In this document: positions 3,591-25,364 of the stretch, one piece after another
Layout: each line of letters begins with the position of its first letter
How positions within the stretch are numbered: the first letter of the stretch is position 1
Source of the DNA: an uncultured virus (IMG/VR IMGVR_UViG_2061766007_000596)
Taxonomy: Duplodnaviria > Heunggongvirae > Uroviricota > Caudoviricetes
Length of the DNA stretch: 64,000 bases
Virus record (IMG/VR): IMGVR_UViG_2061766007_000596
Strand: one strand, 5' to 3'
Notes under the pieces: model-generated
Seen by the model: only the letters and a program-made list of their open reading frames with translations
What the model was told of the DNA's origin: nothing
Databases searched by the model: none
Made by a program: the position numbers and the translations under genes

Positions 3591-3663
3591 TGCGGTCGAG
3601 GAGGTTCGAACTCCCGACAACCTGATTAAAAGTCAGGTGCTCTGCCAACTGAGCTACGACCGC
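3591..3663 (-). tRNA. tRNA-Lys (anticodon UUU), CCA not encoded
   Basis: GCGGTCGTAGCTCAGTTGGCAGAGCACCTGACTTTTAATCAGGTTGTCGGGAGTTCGAACCTCCTCGACCGCA folds as a canonical cloverleaf. Confidence 0.95.
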
Positions 3664-5196: not shown

Positions 5197-5523
5197 CTAT
5201 GTTTTTATAATTTCCATAGGTGGCAATTCAATAGGACAATTTGCTAAAAATTTTTCAAAAGTATAATCTTTGTTTCGTTTTAATCCTTTTGGCACTTCAT
5301 ACCATTCTGTGTTTTTAACCTGTGTGTATCCTAGTCGTTTATAGTAAGAATGTATAGCACCTTCCGCAATCGAGTCAAAACCATCGGCAATATTTGCAAT
5401 TTCAATACATTTTGCTAGCGGATTATGTGTTTTGTAAGTGTTCATTCTTTTTTGTAGGTCTTTTGTTATTCCTACTTTTACAAGAGTTTTTGCTCCTCTA
5501 CTATCTTTTATTAAGTATAGCAT
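5197..5523 (-). CDS. GIY-YIG-superfamily (T5orf172/MUG113-like) nuclease-domain protein
   Basis: LYLI...VKVGITKDLQKRMNTYKTHNP...AEGAIH...TEWY pattern. Confidence 0.7.
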   Translation of the reverse strand: MLYLIKDSRGAKTLVKVGITKDLQKRMNTYKTHNPLAKCIEIANIADGFDSIAEGAIHSYYKRLGYTQVKNTEWYEVPKGLKRNKDYTFEKFLANCPIELPPMEIIKT

Positions 5524-6939: not shown

Positions 6940-7224
6940 CAAAAGGGAGAGTCTTCTATACTCTCCCTGGCGATTTTATGAAGTTGGTAGCCGACCCTGC
7001 TCGGCAAACACCTTAGGTATCCATTTCCACTCTAGTAGGAAATCGCTGCTAATCTACTGTGCAAGCTCACCCCTGTGCACAAGGTACGACAGACTTAAAG
7101 GGCACTAAATGTTATTTAAGAGTAGCTTACTAGAGGCTCACGCACTCTCCGCCCGATTGGCTTGTCGGTCTATCCAAATGGAAGTTTCTCGCTCCCTCAT
7201 AGGAGTGTCAGTCATCTCCTCGAC
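6940..7224 (-). ncRNA. candidate ~285-nt structured non-coding RNA
   Basis: Promoter TTGTGC-17-TATCAT (7231-7259); intrinsic terminator GGGAGAG/CTCTCCC+T-run (6940-6967); many short stems; no ORF of 60 aa or more. Confidence 0.55.
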
Positions 7225-7355
7225 ATAATTATGATAACATATCTAGGGTAATGGCACAATAGTAATAATGCACAAAAATACGGGATTCTGATTGTGCATT
7301 TTGCTAGTTAGTTTTCAAATAAAAAAAGACCCGGCTATTCCAGTAAAGCAAAATA

Positions 7356-7382
7356 CGTCGCGCAACGTCCCATCGCGCGACG
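7356..7382. repeat. degenerate type-I hairpin (another at 8219-8258)
   Basis: CGTCGCGC-N11-GCGCGACG in the same position next to a terminator. Confidence 0.6.
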
Positions 7383-7448
7383 CTCAGACAAAAGGAGAGC
7401 CCCCAATTTCTTGGGGGCAATGGGAATATAAGAGGTAAAATAAAATTG

Positions 7449-7643
7449 TTAGACCCTAGCTACAAGGCGGTGAAGAGGTTTTATAGGGTTTTCATCAATC
7501 TCCTTGTTAGTATAAACAGGAACTACTGTGCAACCGCCCATCTCTTCAGCTTTTTTCTTTGCTTCGGGATAAGAAGTAATTCCCTCAGCTACGATAATAG
7601 AATTATGTCTGTTACTAACTATATTGTAGGTTAATTTTGTCAT
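7449..7643 (-). CDS. hypothetical protein
   Basis: 64 aa, GAGGAG RBS, promoter TTGACA-17-TATAAT at 7671-7699. Confidence 0.7.
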   Translation of the reverse strand: MTKLTYNIVSNRHNSIIVAEGITSYPEAKKKAEEMGGCTVVPVYTNKEIDENPIKPLHRLVARV

Positions 7644-7720
7644 TTTAAAATATCTCCTCTCTTTTTTTCTATTATATCAAAAATTTAATAATTTGTCAAC
7701 ATTTAGGGGCAGGAGCTCTA

Positions 7721-7951
7721 TTAAAAGAGCTCCATAGTTCCTTCAACTCCATATTCCGCAGTTTCTACAGGGTATTCCTCAGTGATATACTGCTCAAGAG
7801 TATGATAGCCTGTGCGGATATATAGAACGCTTTCAAGAACGTGTGTCCAAGAATTACCTACTAAATTGAAGGCTAGATTTAATTCCTCGGCAGTGGCTAT
7901 TGAGTCCTCTACCATAAAATCGTACATTCTCATTTCTTCGGGTGTCATCAT
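7721..7951 (-). CDS. hypothetical protein (start reassigned to MMTPEE)
   Basis: GAGAGG RBS upstream of ATG 7951; promoter at 8096-8124. Confidence 0.65.
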   Translation of the reverse strand: MMTPEEMRMYDFMVEDSIATAEELNLAFNLVGNSWTHVLESVLYIRTGYHTLEQYITEEYPVETAEYGVEGTMELF

Positions 7952-8359
7952 AGTAATTGTCCTCTCTCTCTTTATTATTGCGGTTTCCACTAGGTTATTG
8001 TTCTCCAATAATCAGCTTTGTCAAGTTGAAAATCTAAACATTAAGAGCTAGTTATCTCACTGAGAAGCTCCACCGCCTTGCTCCTCTGTAAGTATAGAAT
8101 ACCATATCTTAATAAGGATTGCAAGCTAAATACTGCACAAAATTTTGGGAACCTGGCGCCCCGGTTTTTGTACAAATTGCATAAATCAAACATTTGAGAA
8201 AGGTCTAATAATCAAAAAGCGGCGCGCTTCCTTGATAACGCATTCGTAACCGCGCCGCCGCCCTAACGAAATTACGTATATTTTTGTGCGGTATTGCGTA
8301 TACGCTATTTTGATAAAAAAGAGCGGTATTTAGATAACCGCCCTTTATTGAGTTAACTA

Positions 8360-8548
8360 TTAGCCGTACAATGCTGTCGAAATTCTGTCAATCAGATTGA
8401 ACATCCATTCTATTTGGTCTTCGTTCATTTCTACCCGGTCTCGCGTATAGTCCTCATACAAGGCGTCAATCTTTTTGTCGGCTACATGAAACAGCCTAAA
8501 ATTGCAAAGCTCTGTGATTTCCTCTAATCTGTTGTTTATATCTCTCAT
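8360..8548 (-). CDS. small helical protein, paralog of 12131-12319
   Basis: Shared pattern KKID.LYE.YT...M......M..LID.IST.LYG. Confidence 0.75.
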   Translation of the reverse strand: MRDINNRLEEITELCNFRLFHVADKKIDALYEDYTRDRVEMNEDQIEWMFNLIDRISTALYG

Positions 8549-8562
8549 TTTTTCACCTATGT

Positions 8563-8590
8563 GGGCGGTTTAACCACCTACCGCCAAGGC
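8563..8590 (-). repeat. type-II junction hairpin (other copies 8815-8851, 9175-9203, 10778-10813, 12326-12361; divergent 11053-11080)
   Basis: Minus-strand consensus CCTTGGCGGT-RGGTGGTYAA-ACCGYCA between a stop codon and the next RBS. Confidence 0.9.
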
Positions 8591-8597
8591 AATTAAA

Positions 8598-8810
8598 TTA
8601 TCTTACATATTCTACATTTATACCCATTTCTCTAGCTAATCTTAAAGGGTGATGTCTTACATTTCTCTCTATTGTGGTAGTACAGAGTAAATGTACTAAG
8701 GTTTCAGAAGACTCATTATCTTCATATATTCTCTGAATTAAAAAGTCTTCAAAATCACGTCTTGTAAATCCTATAACTCCATCTACTATGTAACTAATCG
8801 GTATGTTCAT
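8598..8810 (-). CDS. hypothetical protein (start reassigned to MNIPISY)
   Basis: GGAGA RBS just after a type-II hairpin. Confidence 0.65.
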   Translation of the reverse strand: MNIPISYIVDGVIGFTRRDFEDFLIQRIYEDNESSETLVHLLCTTTIERNVRHHPLRLAREMGINVEYVR

Positions 8811-8857
8811 GTTATCTCCAATCTGAAGGTCTAACCACCTACCTACAGGGCGATATG

Positions 8858-9145
8858 TCAATCCATTATATCTTCGAGTTTTTCAAGAGTTTCCCACCAC
8901 TCTTCGAAGTACTTACCGTATGCTTCATCATTGCATATCTCTTCATAGACTTCGCCATACTCTTCTTCAGCTTCATCAAGTGTAGCCTTAATTACTGCGA
9001 ATTTCTGAACTATCTCATCTAACTGCGCCCAAAGGTTCTCTGTCTCACAGGCGATAAAGTCAGTGGCATCACCGTCCATATGATTAGATATAAGTGCCAT
9101 ATTATTAGCTACTGCGTCCATAAGCTCCTGTTTCATTCTACCCAT
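8858..9145 (-). CDS. acidic hypothetical protein (start reassigned to MGRMKQ)
   Basis: AAGGAG RBS. Confidence 0.7.
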   Translation of the reverse strand: MGRMKQELMDAVANNMALISNHMDGDATDFIACETENLWAQLDEIVQKFAVIKATLDEAEEEYGEVYEEICNDEAYGKYFEEWWETLEKLEDIMD

Positions 9146-9210
9146 TTTTATTACATCTCCTTTGTTTTTTATAGTTAACGGTTTGACCACCCACCGCCAA
9201 GGCAATATAT

Positions 9211-9489
9211 TTAGTTGTTAGCGAGGTCAGCGTTGAAAAACTTTTCTTCAAAAGTGCTGTATTCACACTTGTTATCCTCATTGAAATCAGGCATATATAC
9301 TGTAATATCATGCCAATCCTCACGGATAACTCCCTCTGCGATAGCGTCCTGTATAAGGCTATAAGCATAATCCCTATAAGAACGGCTATTCCATTTCTCA
9401 CTTTCCTGTATATAGGCAAACATATCACAATCATCTTCATAGTTTACCTTTACAAGGTTAGTTGCGTCATAAGCATACATTTTAGCCAT
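9211..9489 (-). CDS. acidic hypothetical protein
   Basis: 92 aa, GAGAGG RBS; first gene after promoter TTGACA-17-TAAGCT (9585-9613). Confidence 0.7.
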   Translation of the reverse strand: MAKMYAYDATNLVKVNYEDDCDMFAYIQESEKWNSRSYRDYAYSLIQDAIAEGVIREDWHDITVYMPDFNEDNKCEYSTFEEKFFNADLANN

Positions 9490-9516
9490 AATCTTTACCT
9501 CTCTTTATAAAGTTGT

Positions 9517-9581
9517 CATTGTGCGTGTCTGTTATTGGAGCTAGGGACTTATTTCGGTGATGCCCTGTCCTTCAAGACACT
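9517..9581 (-). ncRNA. conserved structured leader, copy 1 (copy 2 at 11415-11478)
   Basis: Stem GTGTCT/AGACAC versus GTGTCC/GGACAC; shared ATAAGTCC and GACACGCACAATGA. Confidence 0.5.
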
Positions 9582-9619
9582 TATAGCTTATCACATCATA
9601 CCTAAAATGTCAAATTTGA

Positions 9620-10225
9620 ACTTCCGCATGGTTACTGGGTTTGAGGGGTGTCAAAATCCTGGAAGGCGCATGGTTGACAGGAAAATCGTAGGTCCAAACC
9701 CGCAATCCTGCATGGTTGAGCCATTTCAGAATCTTCTACGTTTTGCACAAAAATTTTTCATTTTTTTGTACAAAATGCACAAGAGGGTCTCAATACGCAT
9801 GAATACTGAATTTGCAGGGTCTCAAGTCCTGAGATCCGCTTAAATAGGGGCTTTCAAGGCTCTACCCCTTGGAATTCCGCATGTTTACTGGCTTTGCAGA
9901 CCATGGGTTGGAAAACCGCATGAATACTGTGTTCTGAAACCCGCATGAATACTGCGTTTGAGGCCTGTCTGCAAACCCACTGTTCATGCGGCTTCTGAAA
10001 CCCGCATGGATACTGAGGTTGCTCGCAAAGCTGCATGAATACTGGGTTTGCAGACACCCCTGGAACCCGCATGAATACTGGGGTTGCGCAAAGCCGCATG
10101 GGATCTGTGTTTGAGGGGTGTCCTGCAACTCGCATGGATACTGGGTTTGCATTGTGGGACCCCGCAAACCCGCATGAATACTGAGTTTTCGATCGCCGGA
10201 AACCCGCATGGTTACTGGGTTTGGG
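9620..10225. repeat. array A of AAACCCGCATGRATACTG(GGTTT) motifs
   Basis: About 16 copies by hand count, irregular spacing (mostly 25-42 bp), at least one inverted. Confidence 0.9.
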
Positions 10226-10410
10226 AACACGCCGCTCGTCGAAACGCTACGCTGGCGCTCGCGGCGCGATGACCAATAGGATTGCTTTTATTTTAGGATT
10301 AAAAAATTTTATTTGAAACAGTTTAGCAAAATTTTAAAACAAACAAAGCAAACAAACAAATCACATTGCGACTGTTATGATCTGTGTACGATCCACGCAG
10401 ATCATAATAT

Positions 10411-10437
10411 AAAAGAGAGGATAAATCCTCTCTTTTT
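10411..10437. terminator. bidirectional intrinsic terminator
   Basis: AAAAGAGAGGAT-AA-ATCCTCTCTTTT. Confidence 0.7.
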
Positions 10438-10482
10438 TAGATTACTCAGTGATGAATAAATCACTGTAGTAATATATTTTAT

Positions 10483-10773
10483 TTATATTTGAAATTCATA
10501 GAAATTCATTTCATTACAAGAGCGTATTAACATCTCCTTATAATACATTTTTGGAATATAAAACTCTTTATTGAGTCTTATTCCTTTACTATCTACTTCC
10601 ATACCCAGTCCCCATATATCCTCACATTTACACATAATTACATAGGTATTATATGGTGAATAGTATTCTTTTTCATAGCGAAGAATTTTAATATTTTCAC
10701 ATGAAAGATATATTGATAAATCCTCCGCCATCATATCATTAAGTCCTCTGAAAATGATTATTGATTGATCCAT
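10483..10773 (-). CDS. hypothetical protein
   Basis: 96 aa, GGAGA RBS after a type-II hairpin. Confidence 0.7.
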   Translation of the reverse strand: MDQSIIIFRGLNDMMAEDLSIYLSCENIKILRYEKEYYSPYNTYVIMCKCEDIWGLGMEVDSKGIRLNKEFYIPKMYYKEMLIRSCNEMNFYEFQI

Positions 10774-10820
10774 GTTTTCTCCAATCTGACGGTTTAACCA
10801 CCCACCGCCAAGGTTGTTAA

Positions 10821-10994
10821 TTAGTAGTTATTTTGTGTTTGGTTATAATAGTTAAAATCCCTAATAATAGCCCTTCTATTTTCAGGGGTATCAGGAAGAT
10901 TATACCCACTACGGTTATCTCCTAAAAACAGCTCACCAAAATCATTAACTCCACAAGATAAACCTGTCTTTTTGTTTTCTTTAAAAATTTCCAT
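10821..10994 (-). CDS. hypothetical protein (start reassigned to MEIFKE)
   Basis: AAGGAG RBS. Confidence 0.65.
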   Translation of the reverse strand: MEIFKENKKTGLSCGVNDFGELFLGDNRSGYNLPDTPENRRAIIRDFNYYNQTQNNY

Positions 10995-11104
10995 TATTGC
11001 TCCTTTCTTATGAAAGGGGGACTTCCTTGTCCCCACTTATATGTTAGATAGGTGGCGGACTTTGAGCCGTCCGCCATGGCAAGATATTCAGTTAAAGTAT
11101 TTCA

Positions 11105-11383
11105 TTAGTCGAAATACTTATGATAAGAAGAACAGCCAATCAATCCCTGGTTGAAATTGATTCTAGTTATAGTATGTTCGCTAAAGTGGCTTTCAATTGC
11201 AATTCCATAAGAACTAGAGAATACCCTTGCTCTAGGCATTTCAATCCATAATGTTGTAGGCATGAGTATAGTAGATTTACCACTATCAATTATATAACTG
11301 CCTTTTGGAAATACATGAGCTATTTTAGCCTTTGCTATCCTTTTTGAAGATAAGTCATCAAAACTAAGTTGTATTGTTACCAC
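11105..11383 (-). CDS. hypothetical protein
   Basis: 92 aa, GTG start, GAGGG RBS; promoter TTGACA-17-TAATCT at 11482-11510. Confidence 0.6.
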   Translation of the reverse strand: MVTIQLSFDDLSSKRIAKAKIAHVFPKGSYIIDSGKSTILMPTTLWIEMPRARVFSSSYGIAIESHFSEHTITRINFNQGLIGCSSYHKYFD

Positions 11384-11513
11384 TCTTTTTCCCTCTTTTC
11401 TCTTATTTAGTTTTCATTGTGCGTGTCCATTTTGGAAACGAGGACTTATGTCTGTGGTGCCTTGCCCCTCGGGACACTTATAGATTACTACTTTTGCAAC
11501 CTTTTGTCAACCT

Positions 11514-11925
11514 CAATGTTTATGCGGTTTTCAAGCCCCGGCTTTTCTGAAACCCGCATGAATACTGCATTTCAGGAGCATAAAATTTCTTTTTGTATCT
11601 TTTGCACAAAGTTGTCATATCAAAATCTCATTTTGATTGTGAATTTTGCACAAAACCCACATCTGTTCTAAAGGTGCCCGCAAACCCGCATGAATACTGC
11701 ATTTGCGAGAAATGGCTCAACCATGCGGCCTGGCCCGCAAACCCGCATGAATACTGCATCCTAGAACGCAGGCGTGGTGCGGTTTTCCGGCTCAGGCCGC
11801 ATGGTTACTGCGTTTGCAAAAAGGGGTACTCGCAAAGCCGCATGGTTACTGCATTTCAGGACTTGAGAGCCCGCAAACCCGCATGAATACTGCGTTTGCA
11901 AACCCGCATGGATACTGGCTTTGCG
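11514..11925. repeat. array B of AAACCCGCATGAATACTG motifs
   Basis: About 9-10 copies, both orientations. Confidence 0.9.
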
Positions 11926-12130
11926 AAATTTAGGGCCGTAATTGGGCTCGACCCACAGGGTACCCCGACCCATAACGGCCCAAGCAACTAATATATCAAC
12001 ATTCAACATCTAAACAAACAATTGTGCAAACAAACAATTAAATCACATTGTGATATTGTTATATTGTTATGATCTGTATATGATCTATGTAGATAGCATA
12101 GGCAAGGGGCCTTATTCAGGCCCCTTTGTA

Positions 12131-12319
12131 TTAGCCATACAGTTTGGTACTTATCCAATCTATAAGAATATACATATAATCCTCTTCCTCTTTTGTCATT
12201 CGAATCTTGCTTTGTGTATATTCCTCATACAGCTCATCAATTTTCTTGGCTGCATATTCATAATGGTGTCCTGCAGCTGCTGCCCTAACTAAGTTTAACC
12301 TATCCATTATTGTCATCAT
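12131..12319 (-). CDS. small helical protein, paralog of 8360-8548 (start reassigned to MMTIMD)
   Basis: AGGAGA RBS after a type-II hairpin; terminator at ~12104-12128. Confidence 0.75.
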   Translation of the reverse strand: MMTIMDRLNLVRAAAAGHHYEYAAKKIDELYEEYTQSKIRMTKEEEDYMYILIDWISTKLYG

Positions 12320-12370
12320 ATTATCTCTCCTAACTGACGGTTTAACCACCCACCGCCAAGGTTATTTGTT

Positions 12371-12637
12371 TTAGTAAATGTATTCAATATCATTGAAATC
12401 TATTTCAACTTCAGTTTCTTCATTGATTATGATTTTAATAACTTTATTGATATAATCAATGATGAACTGCTGCTCATCAGCATCGAGTACTAACGTTCTA
12501 TACGAGTCTCCATACACGCTATCACTTATGCCTAATTCCTTGCGCAATTCCCTTTGAGTCTGTACAAATCCTATTAACTGCAATCTGTACTTCCTTATAG
12601 CTTCTTTTTTTACTAATACATAGATAGTTGTTTCCAT
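12371..12637 (-). CDS. hypothetical protein
   Basis: 88 aa, AGGAG RBS; promoter TTGACA-17-TAAGGT at 12686-12714. Confidence 0.7.
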   Translation of the reverse strand: METTIYVLVKKEAIRKYRLQLIGFVQTQRELRKELGISDSVYGDSYRTLVLDADEQQFIIDYINKVIKIIINEETEVEIDFNDIEYIY

Positions 12638-12789
12638 TCCTTTTCTCCTTTTCTGTTTTTGTTTGTTCCCTCTTGGGATAATACTACCTTATCAAAAAAT
12701 GTTTTCATTGTCAACACCTTTTTTCAAAAAAAGTTTTTTTTCTTTCAACTTTGCATGAAATCTGACTTTGTTAGCTCAATACCTCAAGA

Positions 12790-13045
12790 TCCTGATGAAT
12801 ACTGTGTTTTTTAACATGCCCTCTCAGGAATGGCTCAACCATGCGGGGTTTCCCGCAAACCCGCATGAATACTGCGTTTGCAAATGCAGCAACCATGCGG
12901 CTTTCAGCGCCAGGCCGCATGAATACTGACTCCGCAAATGAAGGTGCCTTAGAGCCCGCATGAATAGTGGGTTTCGGGAGTTCAGACGCCGCAAACCCGC
13001 ATAAACACTGGGCTCGCAAACCCGCATAGATACTGGCTTTGCGGA
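12790..13045. repeat. array C of AAACCCGCATGAATACTG motifs
   Basis: About 8 copies, both orientations. Confidence 0.9.
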
Positions 13046-13615
13046 ATCTCGGGCCCTGTGGCTCGGCCAGGGGTTTGATGGGCACTCGCCTACGGGCCCA
13101 GCAAAGGTCCTATGTCCCATGCCTGGTCGGACCCGCGCACCCGCATGTCCTTTAGTCTTTTACCTTTATATCTTCTCTTGTTTTCTCTTTTATTATTAAA
13201 ACTCATTGTGTTGTTCTTTGTCCTTTCTCTCTCATCTCACAACAATCGATTGAACAACACTGTCTCTCTTGTCCCATCAATCTTATCAATTCTTCTCTTT
13301 TGTTCTTTTGTGGCGGTTCTTTTGTGGAGGGTAGGCAGCAGATCGCTTGGCTCTACGCAGCGTTTGTCTACAGAGCATTCGGGGGGTATATTTCAGGATT
13401 TTCGTCTATTGAAAGAGTAGAGTGCTTTTGGCTCATACTCCCCCACACCAAAAATTTTTCTCTTTTTTCCATATCCCTTTCTATCCCAAAAATTTTTCTC
13501 TTTTTCCCATATCCCTTTTTAAGGAAAACCGCTTCCCGCATTTATCTCCATCACCCAATTTTAAAAATACCTATACGCATGACCAAAACCGCCTTCCTCT
13601 TCCTCTTAATCGTAC

Positions 13616-13644
13616 TTGACAAGTAAAAAATTTTATGCTATACT
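13616..13644 (+). promoter_or_regulatory. sigma-A promoter for the packaging operon
   Basis: TTGACA-17-TATACT with TG extension. Confidence 0.75.
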
Positions 13645-13695
13645 ATTAATAGAAGAAAGCAGTTCAAACACTGTAAAAACAAAAACAAAAGACAA

Positions 13696-14853
13696 ATGGA
13701 GATTAGACACATGGAAAATGAAAATAATAAAACTCAATCTTCTCCTAGTGAAGGCGAAGCCTTCACCTATATTAAAATGGATTATTCATTAGAAACTGCA
13801 GAAGAAAGAGTTAAGAAAGTAGAAGAAATTATAGCTAATACTCCAGAAGAAAAACTTACCCCCTATTACTTAGAAAAATTAGGAGAATACATAGTAATAC
13901 CAGCAAATAAAAAAGAACGATTAGAGAACAAATATTTAACAACAAATCACATGGTAACTGTAAATAAAAGGGAACTTTCTTTTGAGGGTTTAATAGAAAA
14001 AATTTCAGGTGAAAATGGAGAAAACCGCGATGCTATTCATAGCATGATAGCCAATGATAAAAACATCATCTTCTCCCCCAAAATAGGAATAACACAAGAA
14101 GACATAGAAGAAATACCAGGGATGCGGGAATTGGTTGATGCAATCAAGGAAGTAGAAGCCCAGAAAAAAGCAGCTACCGGCCGCCGCGCTCTCCTTTTAG
14201 GAAAACAACTTATTCAGATGCGGGAAGACCAATACGTACTAAAGGCCGCTTACCGCAAGCCCATCCGCATGATGAATATAAAGAAAACTTATTCCTTCTT
14301 AGACCTTAGTGAAAAAATAACAATAGATGAACAAGGGGTTCCCGCAAGTACAGGTTATCTTAATCTTTTTACACCAACTCATATCTCTCTCTTGTTGTGT
14401 AACTATTCTAGAATTAAAGAAGAGAGTTGGGATAGATTTGAAAGTGATATTCGTTGGATGATGGAAGATCTTGATGCTCTTGTTGACAAGACATTCAAGG
14501 ACAAATTCCCTTTATATTACGACCTAATCATCTATAAAATAGATGGAAAGTCAAATGCGGAAATCCAAGATAAATTAGCGGTTGACCATGGTATTCGTCA
14601 TTCAGTAGAATATATAAGTGCATTATGGCGTAATAAAATACCTAAAATGATTGCAGAAACCGCAATTAAAGATTGGTTAGTTTGGCACTATACATTTGAA
14701 GAACGCGGGAAGTGGAAACGTTGTTCAAAGTGTGGACAAATTAAATTAGCTAGTAACTACTTTTTTTCAAAAAATAATACAAGTAAAGATGGTTGGTATT
14801 CTATTTGTAAAGAATGTAGAAATTCTAAGAATAAAAAAATACAACCTAGATAA
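13696..14853 (+). CDS. DNA-binding protein with a sigma-region-4-like HTH and a C-terminal Zn ribbon
   Basis: LIIYKIDGKSNAEIQDKL...SVEYIS segment; CSKC...CKEC. Confidence 0.5.
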   Translation: MEIRHMENENNKTQSSPSEGEAFTYIKMDYSLETAEERVKKVEEIIANTPEEKLTPYYLEKLGEYIVIPANKKERLENKYLTTNHMVTVNKRELSFEGLIEKISGENGENRDAIHSMIANDKNIIFSPKIGITQEDIEEIPGMRELVDAIKEVEAQKKAATGRRALLLGKQLIQMREDQYVLKAAYRKPIRMMNIKKTYSFLDLSEKITIDEQGVPASTGYLNLFTPTHISLLLCNYSRIKEESWDRFESDIRWMMEDLDALVDKTFKDKFPLYYDLIIYKIDGKSNAEIQDKLAVDHGIRHSVEYISALWRNKIPKMIAETAIKDWLVWHYTFEERGKWKRCSKCGQIKLASNYFFSKNNTSKDGWYSICKECRNSKNKKIQPR

Positions 14854-24463: not shown

Positions 24464-24773
24464 ATATGATTTAGAGTTTGATATTGAAGCAATCGTTAAA
24501 AACATTGAACGATTGACTAATCAAATTTTTAAATTATTGCCAAGTAGAGAAGAAGGAGAAGATTGGGAAACTCCTTTACAGAACTTGATTTTAGAAATAA
24601 CTGGAATGAAAGCTTTATGGGTCGATCAAATAAAGCTGTTTTCTTTATTATGTAGATTGGAGGCGTTGTTGTCTTTAACTGATGAAGAAGATTTCTTAGC
24701 TTTTAGAAAACTTATTTTTGAATGTTTAAGGACAATGAATGAGATTAAAGAAGAATGTTTGAATCAGAATTAA
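24453..24773 (+). CDS. hypothetical protein
   Basis: 106 aa, coupled. Confidence 0.6.
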   Translation: MVFKYDLEFDIEAIVKNIERLTNQIFKLLPSREEGEDWETPLQNLILEITGMKALWVDQIKLFSLLCRLEALLSLTDEEDFLAFRKLIFECLRTMNEIKEECLNQN

Positions 24774-25364
24774 ATTATACTATTTATATGCATAGAAATA
24801 AAATTAATAATAAAATTTATATAGGTCAAACAAGTCGTTCAGTAGAAGAACGTTGGAGAAAGAATGGTTATGGATATAGAACTCAACCTAAATTTTATAA
24901 CGCCATTTTAAAATATGGTTGGGATAATTTTGAACATATTATTTTAGAACGAAATCTTTCTAAGGAAGANNNNNNNNNNNNNNNNNNNNNNNNNNNNNNN
25001 GATTTGTTATTATAATAGCATTGAAAATGGTTATAATTTATGTTCTGGAGGAAATAAAAATAAAACTTTTTCTGAAGAAGTAAAACAACATTTAAGTGAA
25101 GTTAAAAAAGGAAAAAGAAGTAATTTTTATGGGCATAAACATACTGAAGAAGCTAAAGCAACTATGAATGATAAAAAGAAAAAATATGTTTTATGTAAGA
25201 ATACTGGACAGATTTTTTTTGGCTTAAAAGAAGCGGCTGAGTGGGCGGGCATTAACAAAGGTCCAATTGGAGAGTGTTGTAGAGGAAAAACAAAGACTTC
25301 AGGAACTCACCCTATTACTGGTGAACGTTTATCTTGGCAGTATGTAGAGGAGCCAATATTATGA
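24755..25364 (+). mobile_element. GIY-YIG homing endonuclease with NUMOD-like C-terminus, split by an N-gap
   Basis: YTIYMHRNKINNKIYIGQT...RW; after the gap NGYN...FYGHKHTEEAK (NUMOD3-like) and IFFGLKEAAEW...IGECCRGK (NUMOD1-like). Confidence 0.8.

Follow-up and report, generated by a model that had tools for sequence, protein, structure and literature searches.

The small genes of three minus-strand operons in the stretch analysed here (the window, 64,000 nt) are separated, at five of the six junctions, by copies of a conserved hairpin. Judged from its sequence and context, the hairpin is a small structured element belonging to early transcripts of phages, and no match to it was found in RNA catalogues or papers. 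The explanation we prefer, at a probability of roughly 35%, is an mRNA element that would fold beside the terminating ribosome, shield or feed the neighbouring cistrons in a stabilising or coupling role, and serve passively as a recombination joint. The element would act as RNA within the polycistronic message, presumably with the ribosome as its partner: a ribosome terminating on the upstream gene would halt just short of the element, leaving the fold to persist, the G/U-rich loop could pair with the 3′ tail of 16S rRNA, the parked small subunit or the compact fold may shield neighbouring cistrons from exonucleases, and ribosomes would be kept at hand for the next start. A small gene with its element would make a self-sufficient expression cassette, and homologous recombination between copies could delete, insert or swap such cassettes, since the element is the only sequence common to otherwise unrelated genes.

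The window holds five copies of the family, all on the minus strand and where the earlier note had placed them, each between two co-directional small genes, 7–9 nt past the upstream stop codon and 14–31 nt ahead of the next start (Table 1). The core GGTRGGTGGTYARACC is matched five times against 0.04 expected from shuffles, and a 25-mer has four copies when up to 3 mismatches are allowed (0.00 expected). Run on the whole window with filters off, a covariance model of 75 family members returns exactly the five copies (44.7–51.1 bits, E 3e-13 to 3e-11), the next-best match reaching 9.2 bits. The best-scoring copy reads CCTT plus TGGCGGT / GGGTGGTTAA / ACCGTCA, with the stop codon ending 9 nt before CCTT and the start 16 nt past the stem; its 25-nt core hairpin stretch, TTGGCGGTGGGTGGTTAAACCGTCA, recurs without a change in the copy at 10781–10821, whose CCTT begins 7 nt past the end of the stop codon. 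The copy at 9170–9210 has the loop GGGTGGTCAA and the 3′ arm ACCGTTA, that at 8818–8858 is of the CCCT / A..G type with A-U in place of the stem pair C-G, and that at 8557–8597 has the loop AGGTGGTTAA. The hairpin had been read as marking all six junctions of the three operons, which holds for five; the sixth carries a separate local structure, TGGCGGAC / GGCTCAAA / GTCCGCCA, with a perfect 8-bp stem, a loop unlike that of the family and a second hairpin behind. We reject it as a divergent family copy on its covariance-model score (Table 1) and its different stem and loop. Searched in viral contigs, its core showed no family context, and all five extra stem pairs were formed in only 3 of 117 matches, which equals chance.

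Table 1. Junction elements, operons and closing hairpins in the window
Feature	Position	Strand	Core match	Remark
Element copy, genes 12371-12637 / 12131-12319	12329..12369	-	12339-12354	covariance model 51.1 bits
Element copy, genes 10821-10994 / 10483-10773	10781..10821	-	10791-10806	covariance model 49.5 bits
Element copy, genes 9211-9489 / 8858-9145	9170..9210	-	9180-9195	covariance model 45.3 bits
Element copy, genes 8858-9145 / 8598-8810	8818..8858	-	8828-8843	covariance model 44.7 bits
Element copy, genes 8598-8810 / 8360-8548	8557..8597	-	8567-8582	covariance model 46.8 bits
Different junction hairpin, genes 11105-11383 / 10821-10994; not a family member	11047..11087	-		covariance model 7.9 bits, E 6.5
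Operon 1: four small genes 9211-9489, 8858-9145, 8598-8810, 8360-8548	8360..9489	-		no Pfam match
Operon 2: three small genes 11105-11383, 10821-10994, 10483-10773	10483..11383	-		
Operon 3: two small genes 12371-12637, 12131-12319	12131..12637	-		
Ordinary terminator-like hairpin + T-run closing operon 1	8315..8343	-		read from sequence
Hairpin + T-run closing operon 2	10411..10435	-		read from sequence
GC-rich hairpin closing operon 3	12103..12124	-		read from sequence

On the mRNA-sense strand the element consists of CCYU, a 6-bp stem (three covarying pairs plus an invariant GGU/ACC) and the loop N-GGUGGU-Y-A-R, and the 75 members, when aligned, have a single 6-bp stem free of interruptions, a conserved loop and no second box pair. 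In an unselected family set, gathered by requiring nothing but the inner stem and the loop (58 unique viral matches), CC.T stands upstream in 48, and of these 35, 35 and 42 form the respective outer stem pairs (chance 37.5%). RNAalifold independently predicts the 6-bp stem, with double-sided changes at three pairs, and the covariation score is 0.27–0.34 versus 0.10–0.13 in shuffles. The unselected set contains ten G-U cells and no A-C cell; indeed, the stem changes among the window copies (GGC opposite GTC, GTT or GCC) pair through G-U on the mRNA-sense strand only, as had been proposed. Across the family, 136 of the 152 instances that could be tested have a same-strand upstream ORF whose end lies no more than 60 nt away; its stop codon, of any of the three kinds, ends 6–9 nt before CCYU in 80 of the 152 and 4–13 nt before it in 103, and lies closer than 6 nt in only 4 of the 136 with an upstream ORF. 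Furthermore, orientation is nearly always sense with respect to the flanking genes. Together, the sense-strand-only G-U pairs, the tight post-stop spacing and the near-exclusive sense orientation indirectly support a role at the RNA level.

About 172 distinct instances of the family were found in viral, metagenome and bacterial contigs, and a scan of genomes from 185,579 species gave 96 loci, 27 of them unique instances with family context; a search of 50,697 cultured-phage records found none. The Rfam 15 search of the whole window at the gathering threshold gave only a tRNA, and at E up to 10 the stretch 8300–12700 gave nine weak matches, none at a hairpin copy. The loop is invariant across phage records of Bacillota type, Bacteroidota type, Verrucomicrobiota, Chloroflexota and Cyanobacteria. 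The uncultured phages concerned thus span five or more bacterial phyla, and this sameness across phyla suggests a universal partner.

The preferred reading takes that partner to be the ribosome. Compared by eye with the rRNA motif, the loop may be complementary over about 7–8 nt, G-U allowed, to sequence at and beside the anti-Shine-Dalgarno core; one variant copy has GGGAGGTAAA in the same loop positions. The starts in the window lie 14–31 nt beyond the stem and thus more than 25 nt from the loop, too far for initiation, and a separate ribosome-binding site precedes each of them. A polypurine stabiliser of phage SP82 origin was reportedly described by Hue et al. in 1995. STAB-SD (Agaisse and Lereclus, 1996) is described as a Shine-Dalgarno-like sequence that binds 30S without initiating and blocks RNase J1 (PMC4113751). 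Like STAB-SD, the element has a putative Shine-Dalgarno-like stretch too far from a start, which could hold a 30S subunit and block 5′–3′ decay; STAB-SD is linear and lies in the 5′ UTR, whereas the element would present its stretch in the loop of a hairpin that follows a stop codon, accompanied by a conserved CCYU and an extra tertiary pair.

Several observations count against this ribosome-based explanation. At about −9.5 kcal/mol the hairpin is no more stable than shuffles (z −0.4 to +0.9 for four copies, −1.3 for one). For one family member (L001), the nearest cultured relatives of its family are Flavobacterium and Polaribacter phages (~45% protein identity), and these hosts generally rely little on Shine-Dalgarno pairing. 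A search for RNA runs covering the region found none. A start codon follows within 30 nt of the stem in 112 of 155 instances, which favours a tie to translation; on the other side, no start stands within 70 nt in 24 of the 155, two instances are followed by tRNA genes, one by a sigma-70-type promoter and some by a U-run. Of four complete phage genomes checked, three have one copy and the fourth has two, one a weak variant, against five in the window, and a copy number of mostly one is hard to square with a device for coupling cistrons in general. A further covariation links the Y of CCYU to the final base of the loop, the two being pairable in 171 of 172 instances, and this, the strongest tertiary signal, is left unexplained by the ribosome model. 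By reasoning, such a pair is hard to fit to a simple 6-bp hairpin, and a zero-linker pseudoknot or a switch might accommodate it. A bolder idea, which we consider doubtful, is that the element is a new minimal RNA fold whose 5′ extensions (the YU before the stem and the AR at the loop end) would pair across the deep groove as a zero-length-linker pseudoknot, positioned by phages of many phyla exactly where the front of a terminating ribosome comes to stand, and engaging machinery that is universal, be it the ribosome, an exonuclease or RNA polymerase. If so, the element would act as a 'punctuation mark' independent of the host, turning any gene in front of it into a portable, self-contained cassette and driving phage gene shuffling too.

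The same downstream contexts bear on a passive decay barrier, in which a compact fold stops exonucleases and protects the upstream cistron with no ribosome involved, the Shine-Dalgarno likeness being chance. Such a fold would be a 'positive retroregulator'. Stabilisation of mRNAs by 3′ stem-loops is known (PMC4113751). Such a barrier would suit every context (ribosome-binding site, tRNA, promoter, U-run) as well as the tie to the upstream stop codon, exonucleases are universal, and the additional covariation suggests tighter folding than a simple hairpin would have. The predicted stability is nevertheless ordinary, plain GC-rich hairpins would suffice for the task, and the invariant 8-nt loop and the CC would go unexplained; we regard this account as improbable.

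A nascent hairpin acting on RNA polymerase, which would pause, terminate or modify transcription and have to stay untranslated, is likewise given low odds. Lambda nutR and HK022 putR are single structured RNA sites behind the stop codon of the first early gene (nutR/putR behind cro) that must stay untranslated. The element resembles them in being a structured site just behind a stop codon, is often single-copy in the early region of a phage genome, and would find in RNA polymerase or NusA/NusG a universal partner able to explain the conservation across phyla; unlike them it has no boxA/boxB consensus and no N-like protein, and antitermination is a candidate role by analogy only. A terminator-like U-run stands behind 24 of 178 copies, a cultured Flavobacterium phage has a hairpin and T-run, read as an ordinary terminator, at the place of the element in the L001 family, and the hairpin closing operon 1 has stem arms like those of the element. 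On the other side, 154 of the 178 have no U-run, nor does any of the five window copies, in keeping with the absence of a U-tract reported in the earlier note; a 10-nt loop on a 6-bp stem makes a poor terminator; the domain scan of 70 window proteins shows no known antiterminator domain; and the data give no link to read-through of the strong operon-closing terminators. An intrinsic terminator is rejected on the 10-nt loop, the missing U-run in the window and the terminator scan, which listed none at the five copies.

The earlier note had compared the junctions with the RNase III sites between T7 early genes. Both are conserved structures in early-gene gaps of phage polycistronic mRNA, but each T7 site is an extended duplex of about two turns that contains internal loops, and the comparison fails on the stem, whose 6–7 bp fall short of what RNase III needs. 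Instead, a dedicated RNA-binding protein or endoribonuclease could use the element as a translational operator or make a Cas6- or RegB-type cut into single-gene messages. The invariant loop on a free stem recalls coat-protein and boxB operators, the element adjoins a ribosome-binding site in 98 of 178 instances, and in two phages tRNA genes come next, where processing is needed anyway. This proposal too we rate as unlikely: within 3 kb, 92 loci have no neighbouring protein family in common, the window proteins share nothing with those of the 92 loci, and identical loops in at least five phyla would require one protein everywhere.

Gene content does change at the copies. Breakpoints at the repeat had been set as a check by the earlier note, and cassette indels are found in two lineages. 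A 496-nt metagenome contig (X5), ~97% identical to the window, joins 8564 straight to 9179, with sides of 239 and 257 nt; relative to the window this is a clean 614-nt deletion, running from the copy at 8557–8597 on the left to that at 9170–9210 on the right, by which the two genes between copies 1 and 3 are gone. In contig X8 the stretch 8824–8856 is kept and the flanking genes are different. In an unrelated prophage lineage, L315/L357 have, compared with L071, cleanly lost a 73-codon gene and one copy, leaving a hybrid stem. The crossover between window and X5 lies in the 3′ half, between loop base 8 and the 3′ arm, and that between L071 and L315/L357 within the 5′ arm; the two different positions favour ordinary homologous recombination over integron-type exchange. 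Thus the proposal of integron-like junctions that let single genes be swapped stands as regards the breakpoints and falls as regards the mechanism. An integron attC is a hairpin site folded on one strand that closes each cassette at its 3′ end and points the same way as the genes; cassettes are gained and lost there. The element shares the hairpin behind the gene, the gene orientation and the cassette gain and loss, but has no R/L boxes, extrahelical bases, integron integrase, attI or common promoter, and conserves its loop rather than boxes. We reject attC because the two mapped events show no fixed crossover point, the 75-member alignment contains no paired core/inverse-core boxes with extrahelical bases, and none of the 70 window proteins has a Phage_integrase or other recombinase domain.

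More broadly, the sense strand might fold as single-stranded DNA for a recombinase, HUH enzyme or replication protein, with gene-plus-hairpin units being actively moved. DNA-level analogues are attC, REP/RAYT, IS200/IS605 and rolling-circle origins. Such a site would suit the cassette indels bounded by copies, the usual single copy per genome, and the attachment to the upstream gene's 3′ end in every downstream context, as in attC; a conserved tetranucleotide on the 5′ side of the hairpin foot, combined with a stem that varies and a loop that is conserved, is reminiscent of REP/RAYT and HUH origins, and the Y/R covariation might reflect guide-target pairing within an enzyme, as in IS608. Among 100 flanking proteins scanned, those with a Pfam match are rich in single-stranded-DNA and recombination genes (RecT 5, SSB 5, RusA 2, ERF 1, AAA_24 1, ArdA 1, ArdC 2), and an integrase is one of the 100 (at locus L050). 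Against a DNA site, the two crossovers fall in different parts of the element, the 70 window proteins include no integrase, transposase or HUH domain, the 92 loci have no common neighbour protein, the near-constant sense orientation argues otherwise, and the avoidance of stop codons closer than 6 nt (4 of 136) would be irrelevant to DNA; we think such a site improbable as well. REP elements are imperfect palindromes with a 5′ tetranucleotide, within ~15 nt of stop codons, that affect mRNA and are recombination substrates; they are repeated hundreds of times in the host chromosome, their stems are conserved and a RAYT gene is linked to them. The element is similarly a palindrome with a conserved 5′ tetranucleotide near stop codons, but it is phage-borne and low-copy, with variable stems and a conserved loop, and REP/RAYT is rejected on copy number, given the one or two copies in the four complete phage genomes checked and the 27 unique instances with family context in the scan of 185,579 species.

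The PeSL cassettes (promoter-early stem-loops) of T4-type phages offer another comparison. A PeSL combines a sigma-70-like promoter with an effective terminator stem-loop and is found in a hyperplastic region, flanked by small early genes that are non-essential, where recombination between copies inserts, deletes and replaces single genes (Arbiol et al., 2010, PMC2839356). In both cases short repeats lie between small genes and recombination between copies changes single genes; PeSLs are confined to one phage group, whereas the element occurs across phyla, usually in single copy, and has a conserved 10-nt loop. A PeSL is rejected here: the consensus scan shows no sigma-70-like minus-strand promoter at any of the five copies, the operon promoters lying elsewhere, and the predicted terminator U-run is missing as given above.

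Two genes of the operons are paralogues, namely the last gene of operon 1 (8360–8548) and 12131–12319 (40% identity over 62 aa, E 5e-14). The hairpin closing operon 1 is unlisted by the simple terminator scan, and its stem arms, GGGCGGT / ACCGCTC, are similar to those of the junction element. A look-alike of 11040–11081, at the sixth junction, stands at another junction in contig X8, with short sides.

Three small operons, with four, three and two genes, lie on the minus strand of the window at 8360-12637; an ordinary hairpin closes each of them, with a T-run behind it in operons 1 and 2. The earlier note had placed one hairpin element at all six gene junctions of these operons, and this holds for five of them: the core GGTRGGTGGTYARACC has five matches in the window against 0.04 expected, and a covariance model of the family, run over the 64 kb with filters off, finds exactly five copies at 44.7-51.1 bits, the next match scoring 9.2 bits. 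The sixth junction carries a different hairpin with a perfect 8-bp stem, which scores only 7.9 bits with the family model and for which no wider family was found when its relatives were sought elsewhere. Small early genes occupy the minus strand to ~13.1 kb, and large late genes, including that of a 2830-aa tape-measure protein, lie on the plus strand. No close cultured relative of this phage was found; 50,697 phage records contain no DNA similar to this region, to the late genes or to the element, for which BLAST gave only two 17-nt matches, due to chance, in the polymerase gene of a Pectobacterium phage, and Pfam searches of 70 window proteins gave almost no matches. The public runs containing the region are bovine gut metagenomes, with no RNA run among those listed.

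Coordinates of features in the window and in other loci that carry the element
Feature	Coordinates	Strand	Remark
Element copy 1	8557-8597	minus	
Element copy 2	8818-8858	minus	
Element copy 3	9170-9210	minus	
Element copy 4	10781-10821	minus	
Element copy 5	12329-12369	minus	
Sixth-junction hairpin	11047-11087		
Operon 1	8360-9489	minus	
Operon 2	10483-11383	minus	
Operon 3	12131-12637	minus	
Last gene of operon 1	8360-8548	minus	62 aa
Last gene of operon 3	12131-12319	minus	62 aa
Promoter and leader, operon 1	9490-9620	minus	
Promoter and leader, operon 2	11384-11545	minus	
Terminator-like hairpin	8315-8343	minus	end of operon 1
Non-coding repeat block	9640-10290	minus	
Non-coding repeat block	11560-12010	minus	
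tRNA-Lys (UUU)	3591-3663	minus	not adjoining element
T5orf172-domain gene	5197-5523	minus	domain typical of free-standing homing nucleases; not adjoining element
Small GIY-YIG-domain gene	24755-25015	plus	domain typical of free-standing homing nucleases; not adjoining element
Element as array spacer	L098:2990-3035		Clostridiales bacterium CHKCI001 contig
Element between cas genes	L360:1480-1562		metagenome contig, GC 0.60
Two element copies	L312:1501-2039		metagenome contig
Element and tRNA-Gln (UUG)	L041:1913-2018		
Element, tRNA-Met, then tRNA-Glu	L037:2915-3024		

In the mRNA sense, the element consists of an A/U-rich, G-poor spacer, C-C-Y-U, three variable bases, G-G-U, a 10-nt loop (N-G-G-U-G-G-U-Y-A-R), A-C-C and three bases complementary to the variable three, and RNAalifold independently predicts the 6-bp stem. 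The CC of CCYU and the GG of the loop, which might pair in a pseudoknot, are both invariant. Double-sided changes occur at all three variable stem pairs (the innermost is C-G in 68 sequences, G-C in 4, U-A in 2 and A-U in 1) in an alignment of 75 rows that were preselected for at least two of three outer pairs, one row being a CRISPR-like spacer. In the unselected set, the outer pairs are formed in 35, 35 and 42 of 48 sequences, against 37.5% by chance, with 10 G-U cells and no A-C cell, so there is selection for the structure on the sense strand. Weak variant copies differ in the middle of the loop (GGAAAGGTTAA, GGGAGGTAAA, GGTATAGGTAAA) and keep its ends, as well as CCYU and the length of the stem.

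A second covariation couples the Y of CCYU to the last loop base. Its mutual information is the third highest of any column pair, exceeded by two of the variable stem pairs and higher than that of the remaining one; the combinations among the instances listed are U-A (90), C-G (75), U-G (6) and C-A (1), and the pair is formed in all 75 rows of the alignment. Next to this pair stand an invariant U and an invariant A, which implies a helix of two base pairs, YU/AR. The first loop base tracks the last more loosely (A with G; G, U or A with A), and the U or C at loop base 8 varies independently of the coupling, which therefore does not reflect simple shared descent. By our reasoning, neither end of the 6-bp stem offers a place for the YU/AR pairs to stack, and they would form only as a mini-helix or as an alternative conformer; the mini-helix would span the deep groove like a rung from one 5' end of the stem to the other, giving a pseudoknot whose linkers have zero length. 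One of two copies lying 516 nt apart on contig L312, where ~35 nt downstream of each copy are also similar, has C as its first loop base, so all four bases are seen at that position.

The element is a widespread family with an unusually strong conservation pattern, and we found it undescribed: it has no match in Rfam at either threshold tried, and a full-text literature search found no description. A pattern scan of viral contigs that fixed only the inner stem and loop returned 79 loci, or 58 unique sequences, 48 of which are also immediately preceded by CC.T and pair at the outer stem positions. Further scans covered one genome per prokaryote species and metagenome contigs; with the counts from the second viral scan and the metagenome scan taken as lower bounds, the deduplicated family has at least 172 instances (viral, at least 53; genomes, 27; metagenomes, at least 87; window, 5). 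By an arithmetic estimate, most of the 96 prokaryote-genome matches are chance matches in coding DNA, and the 27 unique genome instances that have full context are labelled Lachnospiraceae, Oscillospiraceae, Ruminococcus, Bacteroidales, Prevotellaceae, Chthoniobacteraceae, Bellilinea and Limnoraphis. For the L001 family, a large viral lineage with a GC of about 30%, the closest phages in culture are those of Flavobacterium and Polaribacter (protein identity about 45%), and the element is absent from the homologous junction of the cultured Flavobacterium phage. Seventeen invariant positions are common to Clostridia, Flavobacteriia, Verrucomicrobiota, Chloroflexota and Cyanobacteria hosts, and such conservation in ~30 nt of intergenic sequence across distant hosts points to a universal machine as the contact.

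One bacterium carries the element in a CRISPR-like array (L098), as a 35-nt spacer between 32-nt direct repeats; the spacer includes the element's CCTT plus the following AGAAAGGA, suggesting that the host took it from this conserved phage sequence. A full-context copy also lies between cas7 and cas4 (Pfam E 1e-101 and 3e-24) on contig L360, and is either a chance match or an element within a cas operon.

The element keeps a narrow distance to the gene before it. Among the instances listed, 152 were testable against an upstream ORF (same strand, at least 40 codons), and the upstream stop codon, which may be TAA, TAG or TGA, lies 6-9 nt from CCYU in 80, 4-13 nt in 103 and less than 6 nt in only 4; 16 have no upstream stop within 60 nt. 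With a stop codon in the A site and a spacing of 6-9 nt, the front of the ribosome footprint falls roughly at the first C. Downstream, 112 of 155 listed instances have a start codon no more than 30 nt beyond the stem, and 24 have none within 70 nt; an SD-like sequence comes after the element in 98 of 178 listed, a U-run in 24 and neither in 56, and at one locus (L148) a sigma-70-type promoter follows. The tight stop spacing and loose downstream context indicate that the constant partner is the end of the upstream gene. At L041 and L037, tRNA genes follow within ~10-13 nt of the element; the first seven bases of the L041 tRNA-Gln (acceptor arm as read) equal the A-type loop start AGGTGGT, possibly by chance, and the ARAGORN start (1945) falls two bases inside this stretch.

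Two further readings of this arrangement were rejected. Recoding at the upstream stop, by read-through or frameshift, is contradicted by a read-through frame in the window that closes after 2 codons and by spacers of 6-9 nt, which leave the loop UAA/UAG in no fixed frame. Pairing of the CC with a downstream ribosome-binding site is present in 3 of the 5 window folds and was discarded as a universal role, because a nearby site of this kind is lacking in many members and no downstream column shares mutual information with the Y of CCYU. Resemblances to a G-quadruplex, k-turn, T-loop, tRNA-like arm, ops/RfaH site, Chi, dif, IHF site and SECIS were considered and dropped, since most members lack a base that is required or else the variable stem accounts for the likeness. 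The element is also not the same as the VIPR guide RNAs, which as summarised in 10.64898/2026.04.26.720920 have GGY/NN 5-nt repeats, whereas the element has only three GGU units at 4- and 3-nt spacing and no repeat tract.

A model search of five long phage records found the element in all five; four of these records are complete, three of them with one copy each and the other with two, of which one is a weak variant. Most loci have one copy within 3 kb, L064 and L071 have two strong copies, and the five copies in 4 kb of the window are unusual. Pfam matches were obtained for 24 of 100 flanking proteins, including RecT (5), SSB (5), RusA (2), ERF (1), AAA_24 (1), ArdA (1) and ArdC (2), which locates the element in early recombination and replication modules. 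That the element is a DNA hairpin recognised by an enzyme is a rival reading to which we give a low probability. An all-against-all BLAST of the ORFs of 92 loci and the window's first 14 kb revealed lineage-specific families only and no partner protein across lineages. A site for a dedicated protein or nuclease is a rival of similarly low probability.

Wobble pairs that work only on the sense strand, the orientation in the sense of the genes and the rarity of stops closer than 6 nt, which makes sense only if translation matters, argue that the element probably acts at the RNA level, and the mRNA role proposed in the earlier note is plausible on these sequence patterns. Our best reading, to which we give a probability of roughly one in three, is that the element would remain folded beside the terminating ribosome, that its G/U-rich loop would hold a small subunit via the 16S 3' tail near the anti-SD core (pairing judged by eye), or the fold by itself would form a barrier, and that adjoining cistrons would thereby be protected and the next start fed. 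The closest precedents are the SD-like stabiliser STAB-SD, as outlined in PMC4113751, and 3' 'retroregulator' stem-loops. Against this ribosomal reading stand the finding that most phages have only one copy, the tRNA genes, promoter or U-run that follow some instances, the presence in phages whose nearest cultured relatives infect Flavobacteriia, the ordinary predicted stability, and the extra Y/R pair, which it leaves without explanation. A pause or antitermination site directed at polymerase and a pure decay barrier are further rivals, each given an equally small chance. If the ribosomal reading is true, the element would be a widespread structured element of uncultured phages, not found catalogued, and a cheap direct test system would consist of one hairpin, one reporter and one compensatory mutation pair. 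Recombination at the copies would then be a passive by-product.

Such recombination is visible in related phages. Contigs of four other gut metagenome runs were aligned to window 7000-13700, and one of them (X5; 496 nt, 16 mismatches) runs from 8326-8564 directly into 9179-9435, so that both genes between copies 1 and 3 are missing and one hybrid element is left, with the crossover, inferred from copy differences, between loop base 8 and the 3' arm. In an independent set of loci, L071 has the order geneA, element, geneB (73 codons), element, and L315 and L357 have geneA, a single element and then the same downstream DNA as L071; the 5' arm of their hybrid stem changes parent between the first and third variable base. 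Gene-content breakpoints thus do occur at the repeat. The two clean events have differing crossover intervals, which fits homologous recombination and not fixed-point site-specific exchange; with n=2 this is suggestive, not proof. Such recombination between short repeats is described for the PeSL cassettes of T4-type phages (PMC2839356). The cassette-junction idea of the earlier note therefore survives in its outcome, cassettes being lost or gained between copies, and not in its integron-like mechanism. These events make the element usable as a cassette-boundary marker in viromes, and offer a concrete sequence-level answer for the movement of small early 'ORFan' genes between phages. A count of mosaic boundaries by ungapped extension, with 77 and 26 one-sided pairs, is too high on account of indels and of one large lineage, and only L071/L315/L357 were checked by eye among them.

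Two other contigs give hints only, their joint sides being 20-43 nt at 80% likeness. X8 retains 8241-8594 and 9224-10234 and matches between these blocks only the element 8824-8856 and the other hairpin 11040-11081, as if the intervening genes had been replaced. X6 omits 8025-12709 entirely (joint side 20 nt, weak); operons 1-3 and the repeat blocks may together form an accessory insert that relatives lack.

Furthermore, the genes that end operons 1 and 3 are paralogous to each other (40% identity, E 5e-14, both ending LYG, without Pfam match), and operons 1 and 2 have a common TTGACA promoter and a conserved leader (CTATAAGTGTC...GACACGCACAATGA) able to form its own stem, the promoter region of operon 3 being different. 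The paralogues and the common promoter and leader fit a region built by duplication and cassette exchange. The terminator-like hairpin at the end of operon 1 has arms (GGGCGGT/ACCGCTC) nearly equal to those of the element, with another loop and a T-run, and may be its relative. Upstream of the operon 1 and operon 2 promoters sit two non-coding blocks of ~0.5-0.7 kb, full of a ~20-nt repeat, CAGTATTCATGCGGGTTTGC, and its variants; these are probably the 'first hairpin family' of the earlier note, and X6 links 9729 to 11688 between them, with a short side.
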